A stretch of 64,000 nt of DNA, taken from positions 10,102 to 74,101 of IMG/VR virus record IMGVR_UViG_3300011115_000844, one strand, 5' to 3'. The DNA comes from a virus. Every line of letters begins with the position of its first letter. Position 1 is the stretch's first letter. Shown in pieces: positions 5,551 to 63,665 of this stretch. Position numbers and translations under genes: made by a program. The notes under the pieces are model-generated. The model was not told where the DNA came from. It searched no databases and saw only the letters and a list, made by a program, of their open reading frames with translations.

Positions 5551-6158
5551 TATTTAAACTTTTTTTTATAATACCAATAACCCAATGCAGTTGACCCTAA
5601 AACTAAAATTGCTAAAAATGTGTAATTAATTTTTTTTTTATTGCTTTGATAAAATTCAATAACATTTATCAATAATAATCTTGCATTTAATCCTAAAGCA
5701 TATTTATCTGCTTCTTTTTGACCTTCGGGAGTGCTTATTTCGTGAACCCCAAAATAGTTTCTTGTTTTTAGTTTATTGGCAAATTCTTGGGCATCTTTAA
5801 CATCCCTTAATTCATTAAACCCAATACCATTTCTTGTTTTTTTATATAGTCTTTGTATTACGTCTTTTGCACTATCAATTGGATTATTATACTTTGCGTA
5901 ATAATCCCTATCAACGCAAGTACCCCCTTTTGAACAAGAATCAGACCTTTCATTTAATGGTGCGAGTGTTCCCCTTGTGGCGAGAGGTTGTTTATCTTGA
6001 CCTATAAACTTCATCCCATACATATTATTGTTGTTATTAAAGACATTAGAGCCATAGTTGGCACTTTCAAGTCTTGCTTGTGCAACAATAAGTTTTGAGG
6101 CAATTGGTGAGAAACCCTCTTGTATGGCTAAATTGTATATTTCTTGGTCTAAATTCAC
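5550..6158 (-). CDS. glucosaminidase (GH73-like) peptidoglycan hydrolase with C-terminal TM anchor
   Basis: AQARLES...NNMYGMK...YAKY motifs; C-terminal hydrophobic helix plus KKKFK. Confidence 0.8.
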   Translation of the reverse strand: MNLDQEIYNLAIQEGFSPIASKLIVAQARLESANYGSNVFNNNNNMYGMKFIGQDKQPLATRGTLAPLNERSDSCSKGGTCVDRDYYAKYNNPIDSAKDVIQRLYKKTRNGIGFNELRDVKDAQEFANKLKTRNYFGVHEISTPEGQKEADKYALGLNARLLLINVIEFYQSNKKKINYTFLAILVLGSTALGYWYYKKKFK

Positions 6159-6763
6159 TACTTAAATTTTAATGTTTTTTCAGTTTCATCAAAATACAAT
6201 CTGTTCAATTCATCTTGTGAAAAATTCCTACGGATATAACCTTTAAAAACTTTAGTGCTACCTGCACTTGCTTTACCCACAACCAATGTTCTTTTTAATT
6301 CTTCAACTCCTTGTCCTTCTCTAACACCTTTTAAATTTGTGTTTCCTTCTATCGTTAAAACATGAGTGTTATCAATTATTTCTTTTACTAAAGCGACATG
6401 ACCTTGCATACATATAATATCAGCAATTTGTGGCGTATTAGTATTTAAAAACACATATCTTTTATCGCCTCTTGCATTTAAATTAATTACATTCTCTAAA
6501 GTACCACTTGTACTGCCATTAAAATTTTTTGCTAAAAATTCTCTATCAAAAGAATAAAACTGCATATACACTAATTTGCAATAGTACATACACCATGCTT
6601 GACTACTTTTCCATCCAACTGCTTTCATCATGGCTTGAAAACTTGCATCTACAAAACCTACATTTTCTGAACCTTTTACTATTCTTTCCATTTGACCACG
6701 AAACCCTTTGCTTGTCAAAAATGGATTAAAAACTGATAATAACGGATTTGCAATATCGGGCAT
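6158..6763 (-). CDS. CHAP-domain amidase/endopeptidase
   Basis: AWC...GHVALV...TIEGNT catalytic motifs. Confidence 0.8.
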   Translation of the reverse strand: MPDIANPLLSVFNPFLTSKGFRGQMERIVKGSENVGFVDASFQAMMKAVGWKSSQAWCMYYCKLVYMQFYSFDREFLAKNFNGSTSGTLENVINLNARGDKRYVFLNTNTPQIADIICMQGHVALVKEIIDNTHVLTIEGNTNLKGVREGQGVEELKRTLVVGKASAGSTKVFKGYIRRNFSQDELNRLYFDETEKTLKFK

Positions 6764-21287: not shown

Positions 21288-21788
21288 TTAAGTTGTTGGT
21301 GTTAATCCTTTGAGGTACTCTTTTAATGAAGTTTCATATTTTATTGGTAATGTAGTTGATACAAAACCACTTTTTATACTTGCAAACCCATCAATTTTAA
21401 ATCTAATGTCCTTATTTTTTGCAACATTCAAAGTAAAATCAATTAAATTTTTAAAAATAGCTTTCGGGTTTATTGATACAAAAATAGGTATAGAACTTGA
21501 ACCATGTGCAGGAATTATAAATTCTTTTTCCTCCATGATATAACCAACATTCTTACCCTCTAAATATAAATCCAAATATAGCTTTTGTACTTTTGCTTCT
21601 AAGTCTGCAACACTTGTAAATAAGAAAGTTACATCAATAGCCAATTCTTCAAAAGAAAACTTACGAATTTTAAACCCTTGAATTTTCCATGTGAATTTCG
21701 ATAGCAAATCTGCTTGTGTTTTGAAGTATTTATATAATCCAAAACCTAACAAAGACAAACCACCTACGGCTAATAATACTTTTTTCAT
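21288..21788 (-). CDS. TM-anchored LEA_2/WHy-like beta-sandwich protein
   Basis: N-terminal TM; LDLYLEGKNVG...IPAHGSSSIPIFV pattern. Confidence 0.7.
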   Translation of the reverse strand: MKKVLLAVGGLSLLGFGLYKYFKTQADLLSKFTWKIQGFKIRKFSFEELAIDVTFLFTSVADLEAKVQKLYLDLYLEGKNVGYIMEEKEFIIPAHGSSSIPIFVSINPKAIFKNLIDFTLNVAKNKDIRFKIDGFASIKSGFVSTTLPIKYETSLKEYLKGLTPTT

Positions 21789-22414
21789 TATCTCTTTTTT
21801 AATACAACTAATACCCCTAAAACCAATATTAAACCACCAACGCCATACATTATGTATTTAGTTGTCTTAGATGATTTATCATCACTTGCTGATGTAGGAG
21901 GTGTTGCAGTTGCCGATGTTAATAAATCAAGCGTTTCTTTCTTTGTTGCCTCTTCTTCTGCTTTTTTTCTTGTTTCTTCGCACTTAGCTTGTGACATTGC
22001 ATTTTTATATTGAATCTCCATTTTTTTCAATGGTTCTAAAATTCTTTTTTGTGCAACTTTATCACTTGCATTAATTTCTGATTCCGAAATTATAGTGTTT
22101 TGTAATTGCTCAAATCTTGATGCTAAATAACTGCAATCACTAATTTTTGTTGGGTCAAGTTTCCAAGTATCTTGAACTTTATTTGCTTCAAAATCTGCCC
22201 TCGCTTGTTTGTCCTTATTAGAAAGGGTAGAAAAATTAGTAATCCCTAATGCGTTTGTAAATGCAAAAGGTACAATTATATTTGTCCAATTAAACCCTTT
22301 CTTTTTTTTACCACTTGCATTACTATAATTATTATCATCAACGAAGCATTTGTTACCCAAACGGCTTTCAGTTAATGCACCCATTTCGCTTCCTTCAAGC
22401 ATATTTATTCCCAT
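21788..22414 (-). CDS. C-terminally anchored membrane protein
   Basis: YSNASG motif, Cys-bracketed helical hairpin, TM followed by KKR. Confidence 0.7.
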   Translation of the reverse strand: MGINMLEGSEMGALTESRLGNKCFVDDNNYSNASGKKKKGFNWTNIIVPFAFTNALGITNFSTLSNKDKQARADFEANKVQDTWKLDPTKISDCSYLASRFEQLQNTIISESEINASDKVAQKRILEPLKKMEIQYKNAMSQAKCEETRKKAEEEATKKETLDLLTSATATPPTSASDDKSSKTTKYIMYGVGGLILVLGVLVVLKKR

Positions 22415-22425
22415 AGTTGTAAATT

Positions 22426-22989
22426 TTAAAATCTATATTTAATATTAAGTTTACTTAATGCGTCATTTATTTTACTTATTTCTCCATTATTCAATTCATC
22501 CGAAACTGCCTTTGACAACGTTGCGTTTTCAACATTTCCCATACCCCATCCACATTGGTCATAGGTTCTTATTCCCCATGCCGTACTTAATTTTAAAAAA
22601 TCTAAATCGTTTTTGAATTTAGAAATAATCATTACCAATTTCTTACCACTATTGCTATAATTATTGTAATTCCAAATTGCAAGGAAGGGGGAGTACCAAT
22701 CAGAAATATTAAAGTCACAACCATCAAATTGTGATTGTAAAGCGTCAGCCCATGCTTTGTATTGACTATCTGAAAACGTTGGTCTTAATCCCGTAGTTTC
22801 TAAATCCTTAATTTCGTTTTTTTGTTCAACTACCGTTTCCATTGCTTTTTTTTCATCTCCTTCTTTTTTTAATCTTTTAATTAAAGTGTAACCAATATAA
22901 AAAGCAATGCCTATACCACTTATAACGACTACACCTCTTGCCCAAGTAGGTAAACCCGTATAAATTTCTAATGATTTTTTTTGTACCAT
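22426..22989 (-). CDS. N-terminal TM protein with helical domain
   Basis: TM at residues ~19-36. Confidence 0.7.
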   Translation of the reverse strand: MVQKKSLEIYTGLPTWARGVVVISGIGIAFYIGYTLIKRLKKEGDEKKAMETVVEQKNEIKDLETTGLRPTFSDSQYKAWADALQSQFDGCDFNISDWYSPFLAIWNYNNYSNSGKKLVMIISKFKNDLDFLKLSTAWGIRTYDQCGWGMGNVENATLSKAVSDELNNGEISKINDALSKLNIKYRF

Positions 22990-23010
22990 GATGTTTTATT
23001 TTTATTATGC

Positions 23011-23265
23011 TTAAATTATTTTACCCGTACCAATCGAAAATGTTTTTCCACCAAACTCAAATGTTGGTAAATCTTTTCTTATTGCCATTGCCCATGCTTT
23101 TATGTAATCTTGATTCCAATCTTTTAAATAAAATGATGGGACTTTCTTCGTTACTTTTGATATAGTACGAGCATAGGAATATTTAGAAATCTTTAAATAA
23201 TAAAAACCATATCCTAAAGCTAATACAACGCCAACAACTATTGCACCTTTTGTATTCTTATTCAT
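23011..23265 (-). CDS. N-terminal TM protein
   Basis: Hydrophobic N-terminus. Confidence 0.65.
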   Translation of the reverse strand: MNKNTKGAIVVGVVLALGYGFYYLKISKYSYARTISKVTKKVPSFYLKDWNQDYIKAWAMAIRKDLPTFEFGGKTFSIGTGKII

Positions 23266-24040
23266 AAACTATATAGTTATTCTTTTCGAAATTGTCAATA
23301 AACGCTTTTATTTTATCGTATCTAACTTTATTCATTTCAGTTGGCGTACTTATAAATGTTTTCAAATACGCTTCGTGTCCTTCAAATCTTGGATAACCTA
23401 AACCTAAGTATATCAATAACCCATTCAAATCTGCTTCGCTTTCATTATCAATATCTTTGTTCACATAAAAGTGGCTATACTCATGTAGTAATATTGCCAT
23501 TCTCATTGCCACCGTATCGGGTGTAAATTTCTTTTGACTTACTTGTATAACGCCATTATCCTTGTTAATTCTTGCAGGTGTTTGTAACTCCTTACCCGAT
23601 TTGCTACTAATAATAGTAGGCAAATATTCTATTCTAAATTTCCCATCAGATGACTTGTATGTACCCGAAGATAAAACCCCTGCGTTAAAACAAAATTTTG
23701 TGCAAAAATTTATAAAACTTCTTAAATCATTATTGCTAAAATCAACAACATCTAATCTTTTTTCTAATGGAATTTTTTTAATCTCTACCACTTCAAAGCT
23801 ATTATCTTCTTTGTGTTGACCTACTTTCTCATTGTAAAGATTGATTAAAGAAATTTTACCACTTATAGGCATACGGACATAAAACGAACACTCACCATTA
23901 ACAGTTTTCCATCTATCCGTAAAAACAGTATTTTTTTGGTCAGCATCGCTAACCTTCAAATGTATTTTTTCGGGTTTATCAGTTTTTACTTTGATTAACA
24001 AAGTAAACTCTTCATATCGTGTTGGTAATCTGTATATCAT
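23258..24040 (-). CDS. zincin-like metalloprotease (candidate maturation protease)
   Basis: AILLHEYSH (HEXXH) with downstream ESEAD, located inside the virion membrane-protein cluster. Confidence 0.75.
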   Translation of the reverse strand: MIYRLPTRYEEFTLLIKVKTDKPEKIHLKVSDADQKNTVFTDRWKTVNGECSFYVRMPISGKISLINLYNEKVGQHKEDNSFEVVEIKKIPLEKRLDVVDFSNNDLRSFINFCTKFCFNAGVLSSGTYKSSDGKFRIEYLPTIISSKSGKELQTPARINKDNGVIQVSQKKFTPDTVAMRMAILLHEYSHFYVNKDIDNESEADLNGLLIYLGLGYPRFEGHEAYLKTFISTPTEMNKVRYDKIKAFIDNFEKNNYIVYE

Positions 24041-24288
24041 TAAAATTCTCTTTTTACTACCACCATTGGAGGTGCTACCGTACTAAATTTAGATGCGTTG
24101 TAATCCTTAACCATGTCATCGGGAAACAAACCACCATTACGCTTTGTTTTGTTTAAATCCAATACAATAGTTTTAGGTTCTTCCTTTTCCATTGGTGGAT
24201 TGATATCAATTACTTTAATTGGCTTTTTAACCAACCAATATGCAATGAAACCCACCCCTGCTACTAATAATAAATTTTCTAATTTCAT
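24040..24288 (-). CDS. N-terminal TM protein
   Basis: Hydrophobic residues ~6-20 followed by KK. Confidence 0.65.
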   Translation of the reverse strand: MKLENLLLVAGVGFIAYWLVKKPIKVIDINPPMEKEEPKTIVLDLNKTKRNGGLFPDDMVKDYNASKFSTVAPPMVVVKREF

Positions 24289-24290
24289 CT

Positions 24291-24584
24291 TTACTTATTT
24301 TTTTTATAAATTTTGTAACCAATAGCACCAACGATAATTACACCACCTAAAATTATAAGGTACTTATTAATTCCGAAAACAGTTTCATTACTTGTTTCGG
24401 TCTTATAACCACCTTTGGTTTGCATATCTTTTAAAGCATTTTGAATGTTACTGCTATCAACGGTTGGTTGTGGTATTTTTACGCCATCAAAACTTGCCAT
24501 CTTTTCATCTTCTCTAATTCGCCACTCTTTATAACTTAAAGTAGTGCCACTTTCTTTCCATAATTGATTCAAACTTTTTTCCAT
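24291..24584 (-). CDS. C-terminally anchored membrane protein
   Basis: TM followed by KKNK; ASFDG motif. Confidence 0.7.
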   Translation of the reverse strand: MEKSLNQLWKESGTTLSYKEWRIREDEKMASFDGVKIPQPTVDSSNIQNALKDMQTKGGYKTETSNETVFGINKYLIILGGVIIVGAIGYKIYKKNK

Positions 24585-24610
24585 GCTATAAAAATAATTA
24601 TATTTTTTAA

Positions 24611-24778
24611 CTATTCGTAAAATTTGCTTACAGAATTACCGATAAATATTCCTGCGATACCAAAACCGATTACATACAATGCAGTAGCACCGAAACCTTT
24701 ATTCTTTTTCATTGAATAAATAATGCCACTTAATACGCCTACACTACCTAATGTATTTGCTAATTTAGAATTTTGCAT
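24611..24778 (-). CDS. 55-aa two-TM protein (not in ORF track)
   Basis: MQNSKLANTLGSVGVLSGIIYSMKKNKGFGATALYVIGFGIAGIFIG... Confidence 0.65.
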   Translation of the reverse strand: MQNSKLANTLGSVGVLSGIIYSMKKNKGFGATALYVIGFGIAGIFIGNSVSKFYE

Positions 24779-24781
24779 AAC

Positions 24782-25009
24782 TTAACTATTTTTTGGACTG
24801 ATTAATTTAAAAATAAAGCCACCTGCTAAAGCACCTATTAAACCACCACCTATTAAACTCATTTGCCTTGAATGTGCTATGTATAAACCCAAAAATAAAC
24901 CTATTGCACTACCCGTCAAAGCACCTTCGCTTTGTTCAAGTAAAACCTTATTTCCACTTTTACTTTTATTCGATTTTATCTTATCAAGCATATCACTTCC
25001 GTAACTCAT
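24782..25009 (-). CDS. two-TM glycine-zipper protein
   Basis: GxxxG-rich hydrophobic helices. Confidence 0.65.
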   Translation of the reverse strand: MSYGSDMLDKIKSNKSKSGNKVLLEQSEGALTGSAIGLFLGLYIAHSRQMSLIGGGLIGALAGGFIFKLISPKNS

Positions 25010-25012
25010 AAA

Positions 25013-25414
25013 TTATTTTTTTCTAAAATAAAAAAATGCACCAACAACTAAAGCACCAACTATTATTAATTTAGTAGTTTTGCTCATGCCACTCGGTGTT
25101 GGTGGTGGAGTTGGGTTATTAGCTTCATCTAATTTTTTTGCTTCTGCTTCTAAATCTTTTTGTTCAAGTTCGGCTTTGGTTTGCTCGTTTTTTGCTTTTT
25201 GTTTATCGGCTTTGGCTTGTTCGTATTCAGCAGTTGCTTTCTCTACTTCACTTTGCGATTTGGCTTGTTCTAATTTAATTTTAGCCATTTTCATGTCATA
25301 CTCTGCTTGTGCCTCTGCTTGTTTCTTTTTAACATATTCTCTTGACCTTGTAACCCCCGACCATGTAGTTAAATTAGAATAAGAATAGTCATTTACAAAT
25401 GTTTTGTTTTCCAT
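25013..25414 (-). CDS. coiled-coil protein with C-terminal TM anchor
   Basis: E/K/A/Q-rich heptads, Pro linker, TM followed by RKK. Confidence 0.7.
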   Translation of the reverse strand: MENKTFVNDYSYSNLTTWSGVTRSREYVKKKQAEAQAEYDMKMAKIKLEQAKSQSEVEKATAEYEQAKADKQKAKNEQTKAELEQKDLEAEAKKLDEANNPTPPPTPSGMSKTTKLIIVGALVVGAFFYFRKK

Positions 25415-25418
25415 TTTT

Positions 25419-25655
25419 TTATTTTTTTTTCTTTAATAATACATAAGCAAGAATACCAACTACTAAAACGCCACCACCAATTAAAACGGGCATTAACCAC
25501 TTTTTTTTCTTAGGTTGTTCAGCAGGTGCATTAACATCATTTGACGTTGTAGCACCCGTTGTATCACCCGTAGGTTGCTCTAAACTTAATTTAGGGTTTA
25601 TACTACTTTGTCTTTGTGCTTCTTTTTGAATATTACCTATAAGACCTCTTGCCAT
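25419..25655 (-). CDS. C-terminally anchored membrane protein
   Basis: Likely start MARGL; tail nearly identical to that of the upstream gene. Confidence 0.7.
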   Translation of the reverse strand: MARGLIGNIQKEAQRQSSINPKLSLEQPTGDTTGATTSNDVNAPAEQPKKKKWLMPVLIGGGVLVVGILAYVLLKKKK

Positions 25656-25660
25656 AACAA

Positions 25661-26470
25661 TTATTTTTTCTTTTTCATCACGAAATAAATGATAGTACCT
25701 AATACCAATATACCACCACCAATTGCAACGGGCATAACCCATTTTTTCTTTTCTTTATCATCAGTAGGAGTAACTTGTGGCAATTTGCCTTGTGCTTCTA
25801 AAACCTTCGCTTGTGCTAAAGCACTATCAGTTTTTGCTTTTTCAAAATCAATAGCTTGTTGATTAGTACCTTTTTGTGCGTTAGCATTTAATCTTGTAGA
25901 AAGATAACCCATACCAACATTTAAGTAATTTTGGATGTTTTCTTGCGAAAATAAAGTAGATAAAACTTCACCTGCTTTTGTTTTTTCTTTACCCGTTCCA
26001 TTTGCAAAGTTTGAATTTAAACTTTCAATTTTAGAAAGTTTATTTCTTTTTAAATTTGGAATTGAACTTTGTGCAATTCTAATTAATGAACCATCTCTTT
26101 GATTTCTTGGCTTTGGTAATCCATCACCCGTAACTTCAGCAACTATATAATCTTGCAAATTTTGTCTAAATTTAGGACTATCTTGAATCGCTTTAAAAGT
26201 AGCATCAATAATAGATTTTTTTGAAGACAAAGGGGTTACAAATGAACCTTGTCTTTGCAACATTCTTACCAATGCAGGTTTGTCAGTTTCCGATATAACT
26301 GCAACTGCACTATTTATTGCAAATTGTGGGTCGGTAAACACCTCTTGTGTTTCAAAACTTGTTCTTTGACCTAAATTAAGTGTGTCACCACCATTTTGTA
26401 CTTGACTTGCTTTTTTTTGGTTAAGATAACCACTTGTTATTGCGTTTAAATTACCTTTACTAAACATCAT
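25661..26470 (-). CDS. C-terminally anchored membrane protein
   Basis: SNFANG motif; KKKWVMPVAIGGG-TM-KKKK tail. Confidence 0.7.
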   Translation of the reverse strand: MMFSKGNLNAITSGYLNQKKASQVQNGGDTLNLGQRTSFETQEVFTDPQFAINSAVAVISETDKPALVRMLQRQGSFVTPLSSKKSIIDATFKAIQDSPKFRQNLQDYIVAEVTGDGLPKPRNQRDGSLIRIAQSSIPNLKRNKLSKIESLNSNFANGTGKEKTKAGEVLSTLFSQENIQNYLNVGMGYLSTRLNANAQKGTNQQAIDFEKAKTDSALAQAKVLEAQGKLPQVTPTDDKEKKKWVMPVAIGGGILVLGTIIYFVMKKKK

Positions 26471-26483
26471 AATTTTTGTGTTT

Positions 26484-26876
26484 TTATTTTTTAACAATGA
26501 TTGCACTTGCTAATAATAAAGCAGATGCTATTATAATAATACCTATTTCTTTTGAAGAATTTTTGTTTTGGTTTTCGTTGCCAACAAAATTCATGTATTG
26601 CATATCATGATTACTTTTACAACCACAACCATTTGCATTACTAAAATTAGCTTCTTTTTTATTTTCAGAACTGTACTTCTCTATTAAAACATTTTTGTCG
26701 GGATGGCTATCCAAAACATCATTAAAAGCATTTTCGCCTTCATAAGCAACTACTTTTTTTAAGCAAATACCTAAATCGCCTTCATCTTTTACATTTTTAG
26801 CTGAATATCCGTATTTATGGATAATTGCTTTTGCTTGATAAGGGTTGCATGATGCAACGTAAGTGTATATATCCAT
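26484..26876 (-). CDS. C-terminally anchored membrane protein
   Basis: FSNANG and YMNFVG motifs, TM followed by KK. Confidence 0.7.
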   Translation of the reverse strand: MDIYTYVASCNPYQAKAIIHKYGYSAKNVKDEGDLGICLKKVVAYEGENAFNDVLDSHPDKNVLIEKYSSENKKEANFSNANGCGCKSNHDMQYMNFVGNENQNKNSSKEIGIIIIASALLLASAIIVKK

Positions 26877-26889
26877 GTTTTTTAAATTT

Positions 26890-26926
26890 AAAAAGGGGTA
26901 AGGGTTTTAAATCCCTACCCCTTTTT
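26890..26926 (-). terminator. intrinsic terminator downstream of the capsid candidate
   Basis: GGGGTAAGGG...CCCTACCCC hairpin flanked by A and T runs. Confidence 0.75.
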
Positions 26927-26949
26927 GTTTTGTATGTTGGGTTATAATA

Positions 26950-27738
26950 TTAACCTAAACGTGCCTTAACGGTATCGCCTCCGATTACTGCTACTGAACT
27001 CTTAACCACTTGTGGGTTAGTGAATTGACGTGAAGCAGAACGACCTGCAAGACCACGAGCAATGTTGATGTTATCAGCAGGGTAGAATTGGAATTGTACT
27101 ACTGCATTTGGTAACAAAGTAGAGATAGTTAATTTAGTGTAACCATCAATTCTGTACAATTGCTTAACTGCAACAACTGTTGTTTGTTGTTGATATGGGT
27201 CAATTGTGATTACCAACGTCTTTAATGCTTGATTACCATTAGCATCTTGTGTGTTCAAGGTGATAGGTTGAGTAATTTGAGCAGAAGAACCTCCCAAAGA
27301 TTGAATGTAAGTTAAACCTACACTAAATGGACTGTTCATTGATTGATACAAAAATTGTTGGTAAGTAACGTTACTGATACCACTTGATACAGTTACTTGA
27401 ATAGCCGTTCCCGTTGCTACTAAACTACCATTACTATATGTAGTTGTTGTAACGGGAGTTGAAGGCATTGAAGCGTTGTTGATATACTGATACGCACCTA
27501 ATACGTCAAAGTTAGAAATACTTGTATTAGAAGCATTTGAAACTGTAATGATGTAAGGTTGTGAAGTTGGTGCAGATTGCATTTGAGGTTGAGCCATTGG
27601 CATTCCACCATCAGCATTGAAGAAATCATCTCCACCCGTAAAGTACATTGAATCATCATCAATGAAACCATCTGCATTTAAGTAATTTTCGTTTGCGAAG
27701 TTTCTCGCATTTTCCATGTATTGTCTAATGTATGACAT
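26950..27738 (-). CDS. putative major capsid protein (jelly-roll-like, beta-rich)
   Basis: Downstream of the A32-like ATPase, own promoter and strong terminator, beta-rich core of about 160 aa, acidic N-terminal extension, paralogue at 5080. Fold is inferred, not demonstrated. Confidence 0.6.
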   Translation of the reverse strand: MSYIRQYMENARNFANENYLNADGFIDDDSMYFTGGDDFFNADGGMPMAQPQMQSAPTSQPYIITVSNASNTSISNFDVLGAYQYINNASMPSTPVTTTTYSNGSLVATGTAIQVTVSSGISNVTYQQFLYQSMNSPFSVGLTYIQSLGGSSAQITQPITLNTQDANGNQALKTLVITIDPYQQQTTVVAVKQLYRIDGYTKLTISTLLPNAVVQFQFYPADNINIARGLAGRSASRQFTNPQVVKSSVAVIGGDTVKARLG

Positions 27739-28103: not shown

Positions 28104-28952
28104 TTAAAATACGAAATAGTTTTTGGTTAAACTTTCGTTTGCAGACCTAAGTGCAGATTCTTCTGTATGTATTTTCTTTCCTTGCTTATCCCTTAATTGT
28201 AGCATTGGGGATATGATACGGGAGTATCTTTCAGTAATATATTGGTGTACTGCGTTATCAACTTCTTCTTTTGTAAACTTACCTCTAATCTTCATGTTCT
28301 CTACATCTACATAAACAAAGAACCTTATATCGCCATCAAAGTATCTTTTGTTTATCATGTATTCAGCAATTTGAAGTAACTCTGTTTTTTCTTCAAATTT
28401 ATTTTTGTGACGTTCAACTGTATCGTTTGTTTTGTGCAAACGTATCATGTTCAAGTTACCCAATAGTTTTGGATTACCTGCTCTACCTATGTTTTGGAAA
28501 TGGCTAACAATATCAAGACCAATATGCCTTGATGTAGCAAGTGAACCAATTAAATCAGATGGCATAGCATCACTCAAATACTTATTAATATCCTCTACCA
28601 ATAACAACCCATTACGATAGTTGTCAAGTATGATACCCAACACTTCTGCCATATCATTAATAGTCATCTTTCTTCCATCATCCCAAAATGGTCTTATTCT
28701 TCTAACCTCTACTTTCGGGTGTATAGAAAACTTCATTATATCTTTAATCGAAATGGCTTTTATAGACCTTTGTTGACCAAAAAACCAAAACGAACTAAAT
28801 TCATCATTAACATCAAAAATCAATGCTTTTCTTGGTGGAACTCCCTTAGTAGGATTACCTGCAACGTAATCATCAATCATGCGTATTGTTTCAACGGATT
28901 TACCCACACCCCTCTTGCCACACGCTATTATAATTCTACATTCTCTACTCAT
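28104..28952 (-). CDS. A32/FtsK-HerA-type genome packaging ATPase
   Basis: Walker A GKRGVGKS, Walker B LLLVED, SRHIGLDIVSHFQ Arg-finger/Gln motif; single domain with no nuclease. Confidence 0.8.
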   Translation of the reverse strand: MSRECRIIIACGKRGVGKSVETIRMIDDYVAGNPTKGVPPRKALIFDVNDEFSSFWFFGQQRSIKAISIKDIMKFSIHPKVEVRRIRPFWDDGRKMTINDMAEVLGIILDNYRNGLLLVEDINKYLSDAMPSDLIGSLATSRHIGLDIVSHFQNIGRAGNPKLLGNLNMIRLHKTNDTVERHKNKFEEKTELLQIAEYMINKRYFDGDIRFFVYVDVENMKIRGKFTKEEVDNAVHQYITERYSRIISPMLQLRDKQGKKIHTEESALRSANESLTKNYFVF

Positions 28953-28956
28953 AGTA

Positions 28957-29175
28957 TTATAGTTTACCTACAAATTTATATCCGTTTAATTCAAGTTGTT
29001 TTGTAAATTTCAACATTTGCCCTTTATCGTATGCGTTATAATCTTTCATAACATAGTCCTTTACTGAATAATCATAAAACTGATACCAAACGGTGTAACC
29101 ACCACTTGCATTATCATATACGGTATATTTTTTCAAATTATTTCTTTTTTGGTCTTCCTCTTTTACCACTACCAA
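28957..29175 (-). CDS. hypothetical protein
   Basis: Small ORF in operon; start uncertain. Confidence 0.45.
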   Translation of the reverse strand: MVVVKEEDQKRNNLKKYTVYDNASGGYTVWYQFYDYSVKDYVMKDYNAYDKGQMLKFTKQLELNGYKFVGKL

Positions 29176-30112
29176 TAGGTTTATTTGTACCTTCTGAAAT
29201 GATAGTTAATTTATTACTTGGTTCGGTAGGTTGCTCTGCAACAAACTCTTCTTGATATATTGGTTCATCAACGATTGCACCCGACATTGAATTTACAAAA
29301 TCATTCACGTTAGTATCGGGATTAAATGGTTTGCTATACGTTTGTTGTGGTGGAGGTGGAGGTGCTTGATATGTTGGTTGTGGTTGTGGTATTGGTTGTG
29401 GTGCAACATTCTGCATCTTGGTAACTTGTACTGCTTCTTTTAAAGTTTTTAAGATTTCTTTTTTTACGTTGTAACCTTGATTAAACATAAACGCACTTAC
29501 CAATACTTCTTTACCTGCTAAATACCAAAGTAATTGTTCATCGGTCATGCCGATACCCTTCTTTTCAAGAACACGAACAAGAACGGGTTTAAATTCAGTT
29601 TCAAACTCTTCTGTAACTACTAATGTACCTTTTGTTTGTTCATTGTAATCATCAATAAATTCACCTGCCGTCATAGATAGAGTTGGAGAAACTTGAATTT
29701 CAACATTCAAATCTATTTCCCCCTTCTCCTGCATTTTATTCAATTGCTTTTGATTGAATAAAAGTTGCGTATCTGCCCAACCCTTACCAAACTTGTATGT
29801 GGACATAATCATGTCTGCTACCTTTTCAGAAGCATCGTGTTTATCCTTTTTTGGCAAACTATCCATTTTAGGATTGAATGGTTGTTCTTGTGGCTTTTTT
29901 ACTTTCTCTTCCGAACTCATTTGCCCTCCCATTGGTGGTGGAATAAATGAAGGTTCGGGAATATCATTTGCAAAATCTTTAGCATCAACTTTTACATTGT
30001 GCTTGGTATATTCTTTTTCTAAAACGGGTTCACCCAATGGGTCAAAATCATCAAATACAAATTCATCGTTGATTTCTTTTTCTTCGGGTTCTTGAAATTC
30101 TTTATTACTCAT
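29138..30112 (-). CDS. hypothetical protein with C-terminal AT-hook-like KRGRPKKK
   Basis: 324-aa ORF upstream of the ATPase. Confidence 0.7.
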   Translation of the reverse strand: MSNKEFQEPEEKEINDEFVFDDFDPLGEPVLEKEYTKHNVKVDAKDFANDIPEPSFIPPPMGGQMSSEEKVKKPQEQPFNPKMDSLPKKDKHDASEKVADMIMSTYKFGKGWADTQLLFNQKQLNKMQEKGEIDLNVEIQVSPTLSMTAGEFIDDYNEQTKGTLVVTEEFETEFKPVLVRVLEKKGIGMTDEQLLWYLAGKEVLVSAFMFNQGYNVKKEILKTLKEAVQVTKMQNVAPQPIPQPQPTYQAPPPPPQQTYSKPFNPDTNVNDFVNSMSGAIVDEPIYQEEFVAEQPTEPSNKLTIISEGTNKPIGSGKRGRPKKK

Positions 30113-31685: not shown

Positions 31686-32333
31686 TTATAGTTTATACTT
31701 TTCTTTGAACTCCTTATTTTTCAAAACCTTGTCAGCACAAAATATACCTACATCAATATCGCTTTGATAATGCAGTCCTAAGTAAACCCTTGAATAGCAT
31801 ATATCTTTAAAAACGTCTTGCATAAATGAATACGTCTTAGGATATATGTTACCTATAACTTCTGTAAGTAATCTTGTTTGAAATGCGTGTCCACTTGGGA
31901 ACGAAGGAGAATCAGCACTTATACTTTTGAATGGAAATAATTTTAGTTTGTAGTAATGTGCAAGTTGATATGGTCTTGGTCTTTGAAATGTGAATTTCAA
32001 TTTTGTTAGCAACGGCTTTGTATCTTCGATAATATCGGTAATTATCTTTTTTACTTCTTCTTCATTTTCGCCTCCTTTAATTAAACCATCAGTAAAATAC
32101 CTTGACAAATGTTTATCATAAACCATGTATCTGTTTATGTAGTCCTCTTTACCTTTTAAAGTATTGATGTACGATACTATTTCGTTTAACTCCTCTTGCG
32201 TTGCTTCCGATGAATTTTTTGGAAATGTATATGTAGATAATTCTTCTAATAATACATCAAGGTAGTTATTAGTAGAAATGTATTTTAATTGTTCAAGATT
32301 GGGGTTGCCATAGCTTATTTCATCTATATTCAT
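31686..32333 (-). CDS. PAP2/vanadium-haloperoxidase superfamily phosphatase
   Basis: KxxxxRPRP, SFPSGH, SRVYLGLHYQSD. Confidence 0.85.
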   Translation of the reverse strand: MNIDEISYGNPNLEQLKYISTNNYLDVLLEELSTYTFPKNSSEATQEELNEIVSYINTLKGKEDYINRYMVYDKHLSRYFTDGLIKGGENEEEVKKIITDIIEDTKPLLTKLKFTFQRPRPYQLAHYYKLKLFPFKSISADSPSFPSGHAFQTRLLTEVIGNIYPKTYSFMQDVFKDICYSRVYLGLHYQSDIDVGIFCADKVLKNKEFKEKYKL

Positions 32334-34780: not shown

Positions 34781-37621
34781 CTAACTTTTTTTTTTACCCA
34801 TATACTTACTTCTCATTGCTCCTGCAATTCTTTTTGCTGAATCTACGGCTTCTTTTTTATCGTATGTTTTACCATAGTCTTTTTGAACACTTGGAGAAAC
34901 TTTTTTACGTTTTAATAAACTTTGAGAAATTGATTTTACCTTATCATTGAAAGTGGTTGTACCACCTTCTCCTTTACTAATAATATATTTCTTATCATAT
35001 ACCCCACCATTTTTACCACCACCACTTACCATAGTAGCATATTCATTTTTAACTTTCATTCTAAATGAATCAGCCATGTTTGGCAATTTAATAGTTACAG
35101 TTTTTCCAACGTATGTATTTTCAGATGTTTCAAATTCGTTTCTTTCTTTGTTTGTTATTATTCTTTTATAATCTTGGTTTAATTCTTTCATAGAAGAATA
35201 CCCACCTTCATAAATTCCACCACCCTTACCAAATTTCGGGAACATTTTATATGTATCATGTTTTTCTAAATGTCCATATTTGCTAAATGTTTCCTTTGAC
35301 AAATGAATTGCTTTAATTCCATTTTGTTTTTCTAAACTATCGTATTTTTCTTCGGCTTCTGATTTACTATCAAATACTAAATCATTTACCTTATTACCAT
35401 CATCCCAAATTATGTGATAATAAGTTTTATTTTTTCTTTCGCTAATACTTGGAAAATCAGTCATGCCACCCTTCGCCATTTTGCCACCAAAAACTTTATC
35501 AATGTTTGAAGCAAGTTTTTGTTCTCCATTCATTTGAGCAACATATTTAAACGCCATAGCAATGCCATATCCATCATACCCCGATTTTTGAGAAACATCA
35601 ATACCTAATTCTCTTACATTATCATCAGCATCATAGTACTTAGACGAGTAAACTGAATTATCTCTCCATTCAGAATATTGAGGCGAACCAAATTCGGGAA
35701 CGCTTGACTTATCAGCGTATGGGTCTTTTGCCCATTCGGGTCTTTTCTCCAATATGCTTATAAATTGTCTTACTTCGGAATGGCTATTAGCATCAGTCAA
35801 ACCTTCAACGAGTGCTTGTGCCAAAGCAATTGAATAATCATAACCTAAATCTTTTCTTGTTACACCTAATTCATTTGCTCTTTTTTGTGCGTATAAGTTC
35901 AAATCCCTATTAGTCATGCCACCGTCAGCAAACTTTTTGTAATGAGGATTTTTTGGTCTTGTTTTTCTTTTATAATCTTGCTCCCAACTTTGTTGCGACT
36001 TAAACATTCTATCCCTACTTAAATTCGTTTCGCCACCATCAGCATATTGCCCCATCATTGTATGCACTTTAAACGCACCTTGCACATCTTCGTTCAAATC
36101 TTGAAACTCTTGATTAGCAATTCCTACTATTTCGCTTTCCTTAACCCCTAATTCGTTAAAATGGTCAATCATGAAGTGTATTCTTTGGTCTTCAGATAAA
36201 CTGTTCCAAATGTCCTCTGTTGTTCTCCCACGATAGTTATTTGGAATACTACCACCTTTAGCCATTTTATCGGAAATAATCTCAATTTTATCAAATGATT
36301 TTTTTTGTATTCTATAATTACTGCCTTGTATTTCTTTAGGAAAATCCCCATGAAAAACTAAATCGTCATAGGACTTTCCAACTGATGATTTTATTTTACT
36401 CCCATTTTTCATAGTAACTAATAAATTCTTATTAGTTCTATTCAAATAATCCATCATATCGTAATCAATATCTTCAACTTTTATTATTCCTGCATTTGGA
36501 AATCCACCATTAGCAAGTTTTACTGCCATTTCATTAGGTGTGCTATCAGCATTCGCTAAGTAATTTTCGCCACTATCATTTTTTATAATTTGCAATTCTC
36601 CACCATCAGCAAATTTTTCTTCTCCATTTTCGTATGTTGCTATAACTTTAAAATACTTCTCCCAACCTTTTTCTTTAAAGTATTCTAAATCTTCTTCTTG
36701 ACCCCAAGTAATTCTTTCTGATAATGATGCTACTTTCCTTCCACTATCTTTATTAAATTCATAATCAAAAACATAAGTTTTAGTTTTATTCCTTTTTGAA
36801 GAATCTTTAGCATCTTTTTTCACTTCCTCAATTCTATCTTTTATTTCGCCACCATCAGCAAATTTATTTGCCATATCGTACTCTTCCTTAGATATTTCAA
36901 TAGCGTTTGGAGGTGTTGGAGAAGCAATATTTTTTACTAAATAAGTGTAATAGGTGTTACCCTCTTTATCAACTTCTTTTATTTTATAGTAATCATTTCT
37001 TAGAACACCACCGTTTGCATACGAAGGGTACATATTCAATTCATATCTACCACTATCCATTCTGTATATCTGAATATTAGCAACGCCTTCTTTAGATTTA
37101 CCTTGCAATTGTATTGGTCTTGTTATCCTTGCAGTTTCTCCATACCCAATACCACCAACAGTTACATCGGGGAAATAATTATCAGAAGTAAACAAATATC
37201 CTTCATTATGGAAAAAATCTTCTACTTCTTCTAACGCTTGTGCAAGTGTATCATGGTAAATTTTATAGCCATGAACCTTACCACCCTTTGCAAAGGTTTC
37301 GCCTTGATTTAATCTACTCAATAACTCACTTGCATTTATTGGTTGAAAATAAATATCCCTTTCAAGATTTAACCCGAATGGAGGCACTTTCATCATCTCT
37401 AAACTTTCCCTGCTTACAGAACCTACTTCTATTTCAAACAAGTTCACAATTGCCCAAATATAATCGGGGTCGCTTGGGTCTGAATTAAGCAAGTAAAAAG
37501 TTCCATTACCATAAGGATTAAATATTTTAGCTACAACCATTTGATTTTTAAGGTCATTGCCTAATTTATATTGACTAAATAATTTGTTGTCAATTTCTTT
37601 TGTAAATAATTTTTGACGCAT
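34781..37621 (-). CDS. polyvalent multi-module protein with N-terminal DUF2958-like domain and about ten [FYML]-A-x-GG linkers
   Basis: KIFNPYGNGTFYL...EVGSVS...LERDIYF; repeated FADGG/MAKGG/YANGG. Confidence 0.8.
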   Translation of the reverse strand: MRQKLFTKEIDNKLFSQYKLGNDLKNQMVVAKIFNPYGNGTFYLLNSDPSDPDYIWAIVNLFEIEVGSVSRESLEMMKVPPFGLNLERDIYFQPINASELLSRLNQGETFAKGGKVHGYKIYHDTLAQALEEVEDFFHNEGYLFTSDNYFPDVTVGGIGYGETARITRPIQLQGKSKEGVANIQIYRMDSGRYELNMYPSYANGGVLRNDYYKIKEVDKEGNTYYTYLVKNIASPTPPNAIEISKEEYDMANKFADGGEIKDRIEEVKKDAKDSSKRNKTKTYVFDYEFNKDSGRKVASLSERITWGQEEDLEYFKEKGWEKYFKVIATYENGEEKFADGGELQIIKNDSGENYLANADSTPNEMAVKLANGGFPNAGIIKVEDIDYDMMDYLNRTNKNLLVTMKNGSKIKSSVGKSYDDLVFHGDFPKEIQGSNYRIQKKSFDKIEIISDKMAKGGSIPNNYRGRTTEDIWNSLSEDQRIHFMIDHFNELGVKESEIVGIANQEFQDLNEDVQGAFKVHTMMGQYADGGETNLSRDRMFKSQQSWEQDYKRKTRPKNPHYKKFADGGMTNRDLNLYAQKRANELGVTRKDLGYDYSIALAQALVEGLTDANSHSEVRQFISILEKRPEWAKDPYADKSSVPEFGSPQYSEWRDNSVYSSKYYDADDNVRELGIDVSQKSGYDGYGIAMAFKYVAQMNGEQKLASNIDKVFGGKMAKGGMTDFPSISERKNKTYYHIIWDDGNKVNDLVFDSKSEAEEKYDSLEKQNGIKAIHLSKETFSKYGHLEKHDTYKMFPKFGKGGGIYEGGYSSMKELNQDYKRIITNKERNEFETSENTYVGKTVTIKLPNMADSFRMKVKNEYATMVSGGGKNGGVYDKKYIISKGEGGTTTFNDKVKSISQSLLKRKKVSPSVQKDYGKTYDKKEAVDSAKRIAGAMRSKYMGKKKS

Positions 37622-37624
37622 TTT

Positions 37625-38170
37625 TTAATTTTTATATTGAAACGTATGTTCTCTAACTGATTTTTGCCTTCCCATGATTGTATTGCGAATATCCGAAGAT
37701 GTGCAATTCAAATGTTTTGATGCTTTTGCTATTGATTTAAATTCATAAATAAAATTGCCATTTTTATCAAACATTAAAACAACTTTTTCATTATTAATAC
37801 TTGGCAATTTTAAACCAATTTTAAAAGCGTGTTTTTGATTTTCTGAATTAGTTGACCATTCTAAATTTATTTCAGAATTATCATTTTTAACTCCGTTAAT
37901 ATGATTTACTTGTGGTTTATTTTCTTCATTATTAATAAAAGAAGACGCAACTAATCTATGCACTTTATATATTTTACCTTTACCATTTTTATACAAATCA
38001 ACAACAACATATCCGTTTTTGTCCGAAGCCAAAGACCTAATTTTTTCTTTTAGTAATCTTTCCCCACCTTTTGAGTGCTTGACATATTTACCACAACTCT
38101 TTACCCTGCCTAAATTACTTACTTGGTAAAGTCCTTCATAGTTAACTACATCTTTCCAAACTTCGAGCAT
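37625..38170 (-). CDS. NUMOD4-HNH homing endonuclease
   Basis: EVWKDV..YEGLYQVSNLGRVKS; VHRLVA...VNHINGVKNDN...NLEW. Confidence 0.92.
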   Translation of the reverse strand: MLEVWKDVVNYEGLYQVSNLGRVKSCGKYVKHSKGGERLLKEKIRSLASDKNGYVVVDLYKNGKGKIYKVHRLVASSFINNEENKPQVNHINGVKNDNSEINLEWSTNSENQKHAFKIGLKLPSINNEKVVLMFDKNGNFIYEFKSIAKASKHLNCTSSDIRNTIMGRQKSVREHTFQYKN

Positions 38171-38197: not shown

Positions 38198-39163
38198 TTA
38201 GATTGCTTCTTTTCTTGTACCTTTTGAAAGGTTTACATAAGCGTATTTGCCATCGTTCATTACTCTAATAGAACTTGAATCTATATCTGAAACATCAATT
38301 ATCTTATCCCCTACTTTCAATCCATGTTCAGTCATACCACCTTTAGCATACATACCACCTTCGCTTCTATGCGTTTCTCCACCATTGGCAAACATTGGGT
38401 TTGTAATATCCATTTGTGGTGTTAAATCAACATTTGAAAATGCAGTACCACCTACGTTTTGTAAACCTGCACCACTTGTATCAGAAAGTAAATCTATTGC
38501 ACCACCATCAGCAAATTTTATACCTTCTTTGCTCATTTCTTTTCTTGCTTTAGCAATTAGTTTCAAATGCAATTCTTGTCTTTTTTTACCGTTTTCAGTT
38601 GATAAAAAACCTTCTTTGTCATGTAATTGCAATATTCTTTTTGCTTCTTTTAACTCACTTTCAGTTCCAAAATGCTTAGCCAACAAAACTACATTTTCGC
38701 TATGTGCATTTTCATCTTCATTTTCTAAATATTGGCTTTTTATTTTAGAATATGTCATGCCACCCTTTGCCATCATACCACCATCTTCTAATCTTGGGTA
38801 TTTTCTTGGAGGTTGTTTTCTATCGGTACGGTTTTCACGATATTCGTAGTAAGTGTTACCTTCTGCCGAAGTACGTCTGCCAATAGGTTTTGCAGGTCTT
38901 TGTGCATCTTGATAAATGTCTGATTTACCAAACGGTCTTGACTTGCTATATTTTCTTTTTATTTCTTTTGAAATTTCTTTAGCTTTTGAAACCTTTGATG
39001 TAGTTGCTTTTGGTTTTTCTTTTGCTTTTATATCAGCAATATCTTTTTTGAATTTATTTACCAATAAACGTGCTTTTGCCTTTGCAGGTGGTTTAGTAGC
39101 TTTACTGTTAATACCTTTTTCTAATTTAGCAATTTTTTCTTGTAATTCTTTTATTGTTGCCAT
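38198..39163 (-). CDS. basic multi-module protein with A-x-GG linkers
   Basis: LEDGG, MAKGG, FADGG, FANGG, YAKGG. Confidence 0.75.
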   Translation of the reverse strand: MATIKELQEKIAKLEKGINSKATKPPAKAKARLLVNKFKKDIADIKAKEKPKATTSKVSKAKEISKEIKRKYSKSRPFGKSDIYQDAQRPAKPIGRRTSAEGNTYYEYRENRTDRKQPPRKYPRLEDGGMMAKGGMTYSKIKSQYLENEDENAHSENVVLLAKHFGTESELKEAKRILQLHDKEGFLSTENGKKRQELHLKLIAKARKEMSKEGIKFADGGAIDLLSDTSGAGLQNVGGTAFSNVDLTPQMDITNPMFANGGETHRSEGGMYAKGGMTEHGLKVGDKIIDVSDIDSSSIRVMNDGKYAYVNLSKGTRKEAI

Positions 39164-63285: not shown

Positions 63286-63567
63286 TTTGGTTTTTATAAC
63301 AAAGAAACTTGTTTTATTAAAATATTCACAACATTTTTAAACACTCTTTCCTTCCCTTCTTTCCTCCATCCCCTTCCCTTCACCCTACTCTTTTCCAATC
63401 CTCGATTTTTACCCCGTTTCCTGCCCTCCCACACCCCTTCTCCCCCCAAACATACATCCCGTATCTCCAACGCCACCCCAAAACTGACAAAAAAGATATA
63501 AAAAATAAAAAAATCGAATTTTTGAAAAATTGAAAAATTGAATTTATTAAATAATTATAGTATTTAA

Positions 63568-63665
63568 AGGTTACACCCACCTCTTTTAGCATAGGTTACA
63601 GTATTCTCCTTGTTACCCTTAGAGTAATACCCTTTACACCCTTCGCATAGGTTACACCCTTATCC
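63568..63665. repeat. cluster of short direct repeats (GGTTACACCC / GCATAGGTTACA / TTAC(A)CCCTT)
   Basis: GCATAGGTTACA at 63589 and 63645, GGTTACACCC at 63569 and 63650, plus variants. Confidence 0.65.

Follow-up and report, generated by a model that had tools for sequence, protein, structure and literature searches.

The window analysed here, a stretch of 64,000 nucleotides, is part of a complete, linear virus genome of 74,101 bp with inverted terminal repeats of 653 bp, best explained as belonging to a Bacteroidota virus that has an internal membrane and no tail. Its lineage is a large group of tailless membrane-containing bacterial viruses without earlier description, in which a zinc protease gene always lies among the coat genes. 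In the AF2 model, the capsid candidate consists of a helix (residues 3–20), a disordered acidic stretch reaching to about residue 58, a jelly-roll core (59–222) and a disordered C-terminus. Its top VIA matches are the jelly rolls of PBCV-1, faustovirus, FLiP, PRD1 P3 and adenovirus hexon (Z 5.9–6.6), and its relatives occur in 43 viral contigs, where they adjoin the ATPase gene. Within the family of that ATPase, 10 of 14 members match Pfam DUF87 (the HerA central domain; best E 1e-5), and comparison of the ATPase itself with a HerA structure gave a weak match (E 0.03).

Table 1. Coordinates, within the window, of the genes and sequence motifs discussed in the text.
Feature	Position	Strand	Remark
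Tail-anchored protein, 208 aa	21788..22414	-	
YSNASG in 208-aa protein	22310..22327	-	residues 30–35
HEXXH protein, 260 aa	23258..24040	-	soluble, two-domain; candidate maturation protease
ESEAD (E200-x-x-A203-D204)	23429..23443	-	candidate third zinc ligand; ExxxD-type "glutamate helix" motif
HEYSH (H186, E187, H190)	23471..23485	-	HExxH zinc-binding and catalytic motif
Membrane protein, 97 aa	24291..24584	-	
MASFDG in 97-aa protein	24483..24500	-	degenerate copy
Tail-anchored protein, 281 aa (269 aa from ATG)	25661..26506	-	degenerate NSNFANG
Tail-anchored membrane protein, 130 aa	26484..26876	-	homologues in 40 loci
YMNFVG in 130-aa protein	26580..26597	-	residues 94–99; conserved copy
FSNANG in 130-aa protein	26628..26645	-	residues 78–83; further copy, genome-specific
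Capsid candidate, 262 aa	26950..27738	-	single jelly-roll core (AF2 model)
Capsid site 2, FFNADG(G)	27607..27624	-	residues 39–44/45
Capsid site 1, YLNADG	27667..27684	-	residues 19–24; pLDDT < 50 here
Walker-A ATPase	28104..28952	-	probably FtsK/HerA-type packaging ATPase; two genes upstream of capsid gene
Polyvalent (cargo) protein, 946 aa	34781..37621	-	8 copies of [FYM]A[DKN]GG
Polyvalent-type protein, 321 aa	38198..39163	-	4 copies of [FYM]A[DKN]GG
Polyvalent protein, 1229 aa	45902..49591	-	DUF5824, GNAT, DUF3140, DUF5661, ART-PolyVal

A preliminary description of this DNA had placed a zincin gene amid the structural cluster, and the placement holds: the HEXXH protein is the product of a core gene, its catalytic residues do not vary, and its fold is zincin-like. 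Its AF2 model (pLDDT 89) shows an N-terminal beta-sandwich (residues 1–94) and a C-terminal gluzincin-like domain (104–250), in which HExxH sits on a predicted helix (177–192) and ESEAD opens the helix that directly follows (200–213). H186, E187 and H190 are present in 100% of 141 diverse full-length representatives and are invariant also in an 18-sequence alignment (A1); among the same 141, E200 and D204 are likewise at 100% and A203 at 96%. As judged from these alignments, the invariant H186, E187, H190, E200 and D204 form a gluzincin signature. E200 is a candidate zinc ligand whose spacing from the second His, 10 residues, is unusually short, compared with about 60 in BepA (H140 to E201). 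The family comprises 806 clusters at 50% identity. All related loci with sufficient flanking sequence contain the gene, no lineage among these being without it, and gene order is conserved; within the structural operon it belongs to the universal core.

The best fold match of the C-domain is the M48 peptidase BepA (Z 8.4, rmsd 4.3, 121 residues), followed by 3c37 (Z 6.6) and Ste24 (Z 6.2), all of them moderate scores, and these three M48 peptidases are the only C-domain matches within the top 50. The protein language-model (Atlas) neighbours, at scores of 0.92–0.93, are small proteins of viruses, some of which carry the annotation Peptidase_M48 or U49. At the level of sequence the protein appears to be without a relative of known function: a Pfam scan at E ≤ 0.1 gave no match, M48 and MPTase-PolyVal (PF18818) included, and hhalign of A1 against E. 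coli BepA aligned 10 columns with a probability of 1.2%. Searching the genome with PF01435 at E ≤ 10 returned nothing, whereas the same search detected M48 in 13 of 14 control genomes. A Pfam scan of some 60 proteins of the genome (ORFs from about 100 aa upwards, within the window) yielded no further trans-acting protease candidate, the only peptidase domains being CHAP and a fibre S74 chaperone.

The same description had claimed that the structural proteins share a [FY]-x-N-[AF]-x-G motif. Every string that it quoted is in its place, including PFDG at residue 42 of the ORF at 32928, ASFDG (within MASFDG) in that at 24291 and SNFANG (within NSNFANG) in that at 25661; six strings in three proteins conform to the regular expression, and SNFANG, ASFDG and PFDG fall outside it. 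The genome has six matches where per-protein shuffling would give 1.08 (at most 5 in any of 300 shuffles); this test is weak alone, because the motif was defined after inspection of the same genome. Independent related contigs gave a much clearer answer. Among their 1,386 unique proteins the strict expression matches 135 times, against 4–17 times for seven permuted patterns. The motif is real: it is over-represented among structural and membrane proteins and its homologues keep it, so that it withstands the refutation that the preliminary description had set for itself. Outside the capsid and 130-aa families there remain 93 matches in 29 clusters, against 7–33 in 5–17 clusters for the controls. 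These approximately 29 further clusters are enriched for membrane proteins, and a transmembrane helix is found in 64% of motif-bearing proteins compared with 35% of background (Fisher p = 1e-8). No copy of the motif turned up in the orthogroups of the ATPase, the 324-aa protein, PAP2 or the protease.

In the capsid and 130-aa alignments the motif columns are conserved, whereas the surrounding linkers are variable and of low pLDDT. At about 50% and 33% identity both capsid sites are kept, as is the second site in the 130-aa protein, and relatives whose protease is 34–41% identical retain the motif in drifted form. Among 69 unique capsid homologues, site 1 has the consensus F-[SAVLI]-[NG]-[AV]-D-G-F, followed by a conserved F-I-D-D-D, and site 2 reads F-[FM]-[NGSR]-A-[DGN]-G. 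The 130-aa protein is built of a helical N-domain, a Cys-rich stretch, the motif, a linker, a C-terminal transmembrane helix and a final KK. Its YMNFVG belongs to a column block, [FY]-[LM]-N-[AVF]-[ST]-G, that stands inside an otherwise indel-rich linker and matches the strict expression in 26 of 35 homologues and a relaxed one in 32; at its FSNANG, none of the aligned homologues has the motif. We take [FY]-x-N-[A>V,M,F]-x-G, usually with an acidic residue at -2, to be a conserved short linear motif of predicted disordered segments.

The remaining membrane proteins extend this pattern. Orthologues of the 208-aa protein carry YSYANGG (L029) or FKNFTGG (L030) at the YSNASG position, or have no motif there (L001); an extra copy in this protein, FTNALG (residues 52–57), which the preliminary description had not listed, is not conserved. 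Where the 25661 and 24291 ORFs have degenerate copies, their orthologues have true ones. In orthologues of the 97-aa protein these are FANVDG, FNSVEG, FNNADGG or YNNADGD, in the segment that joins the N-domain to the transmembrane helix, and 11 of 31 match the relaxed expression where 0.4 would be expected. The 281-aa family often has one to three tandem copies at the NSNFANG position, for example FSNASG, YANADG or three of YF[KR]MSG.

A second motif class is found in the polyvalent proteins. The 946-aa protein, which contains FADGGM, has DUF2958 at residues 6–94 and its first motif at 110. In the 1229-aa protein the copies (residues 121, 239, 404, 640, 764 and 1077) lie between the Pfam domains (59–113, 146–238, 420–515, 688–745 and 838–1034). 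The overlap between capsid and polyprotein motifs that had been suggested earlier fares less evenly. Hybrid sites do occur at orthologous positions, as YSNASG/YSYANGG/FKNFTGG in the 208-aa family and as FFNADGG/YNYADGG at capsid site 2, the latter being the cargo-type form of the divergent relative G001, and they lend some support to a link between the structural motif and [FYM]-A-K/D/N-G-G. The contexts, however, differ, acidic around the one and basic around the other, and the aromatic residue is shifted as well, so that one enzyme may not read both classes.

We propose that the HEXXH protein is a catalytically competent gluzincin, its M48-like catalytic domain placed behind the N-terminal beta-sandwich, and that it is produced along with the virion proteins. 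The motif would present itself to this enzyme twice in the N-terminal arm of the capsid protein and in the linkers that join soluble domains to membrane anchors in many small virion membrane proteins, and the related form [FYM]-A-[KDN]-G-G would do so between the polyvalent cargo domains. Most likely, the zincin recognizes these motifs and cuts during or after assembly. Cutting would remove the N-terminal helix and acidic arm of the capsid protein, free the soluble domains from their anchors and separate the cargo domains from each other, although, depending on the topology of the tail-anchored proteins, a soluble enzyme may not reach every site. The motif looks as a maturation cleavage site should, being a short consensus that recurs in several virion proteins, in exposed linkers, and is conserved in relatives. 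That the zincin should cut it is an attractive idea; we infer both the cleavage and the enzyme, and hold the whole proposal, structural and cargo motifs together, tentatively, at a little less than an even chance. Our guess for the scissile bond is the one before Ala, with A-x-G as P1'–P3', as this is the sole register common to both motif classes. The idea that one maturation protease trims capsid, membrane and perhaps cargo proteins, as put forward in the preliminary description, is thus partly supported, and the observation beneath it is confirmed and stronger than the letters of one genome could show.

It is also conceivable that the motif is never cut. As a docking or assembly motif, the turn-prone N-A-D-G flanked by an aromatic residue could insert into one common pocket, located on the capsid underside, the 324-aa basic protein or the HEXXH protein's beta-sandwich, and so hold membrane proteins together with capsid arms in a single lattice, while the zincin does something else. 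The data fit this almost as well as they fit cleavage. Arrays of three and four copies in the 281-aa family, spaced 7–20 residues apart, suit avidity and resemble multivalent binding sites more than cleavage sites. The capsid arm is well conserved, helix and motif alike, as expected for a part that is retained in the virion; the F-I-D-D-D after site 1 exceeds what a protease footprint needs; and the proteins in which the motif is enriched are membrane proteins, which must contact the shell. Nevertheless, a motif common to the capsid, more than 10 membrane-protein families and cargo linkers is the known signature of viral maturation cleavage and not of docking, the cargo copies fall exactly between enzymatic domains, and a predicted active protease is universally co-encoded. 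We regard docking as a serious but rather unlikely account.

Less likely again is a zincin unrelated to the motif, whether a virion-carried or late enzyme acting on the host (on envelope or surface glycoproteins at entry, or on a host defence or translation factor) or a protease/chaperone for membrane-protein quality control, as the M48 enzymes BepA and HtpX are. The best fold matches of the N-domain are glycan-binding modules (SGBP-B, Z 8.4; CBMs, Z 7.5–8.3), although beta-sandwich matches at such scores are generic, and the Atlas neighbours include Peptidase_U49, a Lit-like family of host-directed proteases. The cell wall, on the other hand, is already served by the CHAP and glucosaminidase genes of this genome, and the conserved motif would be left without an explanation. 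Very improbable, to our mind, is cleavage of the motif by another agent. Nodavirus (Asn-Ala) and tetravirus (Asn-Phe) capsids cleave themselves at Asn, and the strict motif, which by definition always has Asn and in which A, V, M or F comes next, would allow assembly-dependent self-cleavage at N|A; A-x-G would also fit the -3/-1 rule of a host protease such as signal peptidase I. At orthologous capsid sites, however, G, S, R, H or Y stands in place of Asn (FIGVDGF in 11 of 69 capsids; FFRADGG, FFGADG and FMSANG elsewhere), the cargo motif is entirely without Asn, and most sites, those of the capsid protein among them, have no signal-like helix before them.

If the zincin is indeed the maturation protease, the lineage would be a widespread one of tailless, internal-membrane viruses of Bacteroidota, with linear, ITR-bearing genomes of 45–130 kb, a single jelly-roll capsid and polyvalent cargo, that matures as adenoviruses, poxviruses and African swine fever virus (ASFV) do, by means of an independently recruited gluzincin cutting ahead of A-x-G in substrates of three kinds (the capsid arm, more than 10 membrane-anchored families and cargo linkers). 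This full picture is possible, and we advance it with considerable doubt. The maturation proteases of those eukaryotic viruses act at short consensus sites common to core and membrane proteins. Adenain (C5) of adenovirus, which shares a jelly-roll, ITR-bearing, protein-primed-type character with the system here, cuts at (M/I/L)-X-G-G|X or (M/I/L)-X-G-X|G. In both cases there would be one virus enzyme, a short Gly-containing consensus with an upstream hydrophobic residue, and several virion precursors. The analogy is one of logic only: adenain is a clan CE cysteine protease and the candidate here an HExxH/ExxxD zincin with a different motif, the hexon itself is uncut whereas our capsid candidate is a proposed substrate, and no clan CE domain (C5, I7-type C57 or pS273R-type C63) was found in the approximately 60 proteins scanned with Pfam. 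Vaccinia I7, also a cysteine protease, cuts AG|X sites of core proteins and of the membrane protein A17, an A-G-type small-residue site as in our motif. The M44 metalloprotease G1, needed for vaccinia morphogenesis, is a precedent in a membrane-containing DNA virus; its motif is the inverted HxxEH (M16/M44), and the protein here, with HExxH and M48-like rather than pitrilysin-like fold matches, is related to it neither in sequence nor in fold. ASFV pS273R cuts pp220 and pp62 at G-G|X, which the inter-module G-G repeats ([FYM]-A-K-G-G) of the polyvalent proteins resemble, yet it is a SUMO-protease-like cysteine enzyme and its polyproteins are structural components of the core shell, not enzymatic cargo.

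Closest in fold are the M48 peptidases (Ste24, HtpX, Oma1, BepA), which act on membrane-associated substrates, and the soluble minigluzincins. The HExxH helix and the Glu in its E-x-x-A-D context are shared with these enzymes, whereas HMM-level similarity, transmembrane segments and a TPR domain are absent from the HEXXH protein, and its N-terminal beta-sandwich is new. Similar in supposed function are the MPTase zincins of polyvalent proteins (Iyer et al., 2017; PMC5512222), whose predicted role is to process those polyvalent proteins, which are packaged with the DNA and delivered along with it. Pfam detected no MPTase-PolyVal domain in the three polyvalent proteins here or in the HEXXH protein; the MPTase peptidase is embedded in the polyvalent protein on which it acts, whereas the candidate described here has a gene of its own within the structural operon.

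Every motif string quoted in the preliminary description stands at the place where it was reported. In this genome the pattern [FY]-x-N-[AF]-x-G has six matches against 1.08 expected (six strings in three proteins), a weak test because the pattern was picked after this genome had been inspected. Relatives were gathered as 43 viral contigs via the capsid protein, 80 via the ATPase and 12 genome-bin contigs via the protease. Among their 1,386 unique proteins the unchanged pattern occurs 135 times, whereas seven permuted residue-class patterns occur 4–17 times; together with conserved columns in the capsid and 130-aa families, this bears out the earlier proposal of an enriched and conserved motif. 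Chance or composition as its origin is ruled out by the permuted-pattern controls and by this conservation in relatives. Beyond the two families, 93 copies are spread over 29 protein clusters, compared with 7–33 copies in 5–17 clusters for the controls. A membrane helix is found in 64% of motif-bearing proteins versus 35% of all proteins (p = 1e-8), and the motif is essentially absent from the ATPase, 324-aa, PAP2 and protease families.

The motif logo reads [ED]-x-[FY]-x-N-[A>V,M,F]-[S,D,G,T]-G. Alignment of the 130-aa family (~33% identity) shows one copy as a clear-cut block of columns, [FY]-[LM]-N-[AVF]-[ST]-G; the linker around it, which joins the helical domain to the C-terminal membrane helix, is rich in indels. 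FSNANG, the second copy in the 130-aa protein of this genome, is not conserved in the family alignment. In relatives whose protease is 34–41% identical the motif has drifted (FFHFDG, YSNWTG, FSDFNG) at unchanged positions. Two looser strings that had been listed with the motif, SNFANG in the 25661 ORF and ASFDG in the 24291 ORF, are degenerate copies, but orthologues hold true copies there, sometimes in tandem. Three orthologues of the 25661 ORF carry such arrays (L003 11231-11950, L011 11273-12040 and L002 11827-12462 on related contigs), and the array types are AQYF[KR]MSG three times over, four spaced YxN[LVA]xG, and FNNVSG-FYNAHG-MYSNVAG back to back. A Cys-Gly-Cys often adjoins the motif (FSNANGCGC, FYSASGCGC, FSNACGCGG), both in the 130-aa protein and at L003 223-354, L022 18987-19307 and L054 15605-16144; directly before its motif, a C-x-C...C cluster is conserved in the 130-aa family and may bind a metal or form disulfides.

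Several known signals were considered as readings of the motif and rejected. An N-glycosylation sequon N-x-S/T would require Ser or Thr at a position where only ~37% of copies have it and the capsid copies have Asp, and a PglB-type sequon would have its acidic residue at a different distance. Capsid site 1 (N-A-D-G-F-I-D-D-D) fits four positions of an EF-hand-like calcium loop, yet an aromatic residue occupies position 1, and the downstream part is missing from the copies in membrane proteins. A sortase or exosortase C-terminal sorting signal does not accord with the gap between motif and transmembrane helix (median 96 residues), with copies that follow N-terminal helices, or with copies in the capsid protein, where such a helix is absent.

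The HEXXH protein has no match in Pfam or PHROGs; against PDB sequence profiles, neither its family alignment A1 nor alignment A2 gave a match. The family is large: 2,033 proteins in a 90%-identity collection, and 806 clusters at 50% identity (326 with E <1e-30), and nearly all listed matches cover both domains. All 141 full-length representatives have His186, Glu187, His190, Glu200 and Asp204 (100% conservation); these invariant residues are the predicted gluzincin signature, HExxH plus E-x-x-x-D (here E-S-E-A-D). The AlphaFold2 model (pLDDT 89) predicts a beta-sandwich (residues 1–94) and an alpha/beta domain in which a small sheet would be followed by the HExxH helix (177–192) and then directly by the helix bearing Glu200 (200–213). 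Among the top 50 matches from 48,161 PDB representatives, just three fall to the C-terminal domain, all of them M48 peptidases (BepA, Z 8.4; 3c37, Z 6.6; Ste24, Z 6.2); Foldseek against the PDB returned matches to the N-terminal domain alone. In a language-model search with residues 100–260 the neighbours (0.92–0.93) are small viral proteins partly annotated as M48 or U49. Because the fold matches are of M48 type and M48 membership at the sequence level is not found, we assign the protein to a new family of M48-like gluzincins.

The protease gene is present in all related loci with enough flank, including the most divergent loci and one rearranged genome, and start/stop overlaps at 24040 and 23258-23265 couple it translationally to its membrane-protein neighbours. 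Whether relatives without the protease are also without the motif found no informative case: L043 has neither, but is just a 17-kb fragment, and L129 was rejected as a protease-less relative since its full record (IMGVR_UViG_3300042465_007707) has both genes further away. In that record unrelated genes, one of them for a 770-aa HExxH protein, make up an insertion of over 10 kb between the ATPase and capsid genes, the core gene order being otherwise retained. A scan with the distant protease homologue P0268 gave no match.

The capsid candidate, which has no Pfam or PHROGs match, is modelled as a single jelly roll (residues 59–222) with both ends disordered. Its closest structural matches, weak at Z 5.9–6.6, are the jelly rolls of PBCV-1, faustovirus, FLiP, PRD1 P3 and adenovirus hexon. 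Both motif sites are kept across 69 unique capsid homologues, with consensus F-[SAVLI]-[NG]-[AV]-D-G-F at site 1 and F-[FM]-[NGSR]-A-[DGN]-G at site 2, and both are placed in a part of the model with pLDDT <50. A paralogue of this jelly roll, the 156-aa protein (hhalign 87%, E 4e-6, 32% identity over 90 columns), lacks both the N-terminal arm and the motif and may serve as another capsid protein or as a penton.

A related motif, [FYM]-A-[DKN]-G-G, occurs in 16 copies, against 0.15 expected, in three proteins of the polyvalent kind defined by Iyer et al. 2017 (PMC5512222), across which ART-PolyVal, DUF5661, DUF5824, DUF3140, DUF2958 and GNAT domains are found. The copies lie between Pfam domains, never within one, and recur in relatives, mostly as [FY]-A-K-G-G. 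The structural logo has an acidic context and an aromatic residue three positions ahead of Ala; the cargo logo has a basic context and the aromatic residue immediately ahead of Ala, so that A-x-G is the sole register that the two share. The sequences indicate that the two motifs do interconvert at orthologous sites: one position in the 208-aa family reads YSNASG, YSYANGG or FKNFTGG, and capsid site 2 is FFNADGG here versus YNYADGG in a divergent relative. The genes for the 946-aa and 321-aa polyvalent-type proteins are separated by an HNH/NUMOD homing endonuclease gene, whose insertion may have divided a single cargo gene.

The 74,101-bp record, a single IMG/VR virus record, is bounded by exact 653-bp inverted terminal repeats (classed as ITR). 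The window covers bases 10102-74101 of it. The genome is complete and linear, of the protein-primed type, and its size is unusually great for a tailless bacterial virus. GC content is ~30%, and in the window the minus strand holds nearly all genes from 4.4 kb onward. The region of motif and protease is a single tightly packed operon, in the order 324-aa acidic/basic protein, Walker-A ATPase, capsid candidate, 130-aa protein, small proteins with one terminal transmembrane helix, HEXXH protein, further membrane proteins, LEA_2-like protein and fibres. Encoded beside the ATPase, the 324-aa protein may have a DNA-condensing or scaffolding role; the PAP2-family phosphatase may remodel virion membrane lipids, and a stretch within the 823-aa ATPase may be an intein. 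Because no portal, terminase or tail gene was found among the ~60 proteins scanned, the frame of a tailless membrane-containing virus adopted in the preliminary description is reasonable, short of proof.

Features of the window discussed in the text
Feature	Position	Strand	Remarks
156-aa jelly-roll paralogue	5080-5550	-	
Glucosaminidase and CHAP-domain genes, adjacent	5550-6763	-	likely enzymes of cell-wall lysis or entry
208-aa protein	21788-22414	-	
HEXXH protein, 260 aa	23258-24040	-	
130-aa protein	26484-26876	-	
Capsid candidate, 262 aa	26950-27738	-	site 1 YLNADG, residues 19-24; site 2 FFNADG, residues 39-44
Walker-A ATPase	28104-28952		weak HerA central domain match (DUF87 in 10/14 family members, best E 1e-5)
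Core 324-aa protein	29138-30112	-	acidic N-terminus, Pro/Gln-rich linkers, AT-hook-like basic tail GKRGRPKKK
PAP2-family phosphatase (lipid phosphate phosphatase type)	31686-32333	-	structural-module core gene, in 38 related loci
Polyvalent protein	34781-37621		
HNH/NUMOD homing endonuclease	37625-38170	-	
Polyvalent protein	38198-39163		
AAA_5 (MoxR-like) ATPase, 823 aa	41885-44356	-	weak Hom_end/LAGLIDADG matches at residues 367-439
Polyvalent protein	45902-49591		
Right-hand ITR	~63348-64000		

We tentatively propose that the zincin is a maturation protease and that the motifs are its sites, a reading we consider quite possible, if short of probable, because a short consensus that always lies in exposed segments of capsid, many membrane proteins and inter-domain linkers of packaged proteins, together with a universally co-encoded protease, resembles the situation in adenovirus, vaccinia and ASFV. 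Zincins usually favour a hydrophobic or small P1' residue, and for this reason we guess that a P3–P3' footprint would fit [FY]-x-N / [AVMF]-x-G, with the slash at the scissile bond. The main rival is that the motif is a docking motif and stays uncut; in its favour are the tandem copies and a capsid arm that is well conserved as a whole, although we judge it rather unlikely. Still less likely, in our estimation, the zincin acts on host or membrane-quality-control substrates; a cell-wall role is less necessary given the glucosaminidase and CHAP genes. Cleavage through Asn self-cleavage or by a host protease seems very improbable, as orthologous sites occur without Asn. Whether cut or uncut, this strongly conserved linear motif is a marker of the lineage's virion proteins and a useful aid in annotating proteins that Pfam and PHROGs leave unmatched.

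DNA and protein searches of 50,697 GenBank phage records found no relative, and we found no description of this virus group in the literature. The homologues are all labelled 'hypothetical protein', and genome-bin matches are mostly to Bacteroidota (Lishizhenia, Sediminibacterium, Flavobacteriales, Saprospiraceae). If the zincin is indeed the maturation protease, it would represent a second, independent origin of consensus-site maturation among jelly-roll viruses, supply a rule by which mature virion proteomes could be predicted across a very large group of metagenomic viruses (806 protease clusters at 50% identity), and explain the release of polyvalent cargo proteins. Maturation by a dedicated protease with a short consensus is known from tailed phages, with serine proteases, and from eukaryotic jelly-roll and large DNA viruses, with cysteine proteases; to our knowledge it has not been described in bacterial tailless membrane-containing viruses, nor with a zincin as the main enzyme. 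The comparative test offered here concerns motif and enzyme, and cleavage itself is proposed from the pattern.
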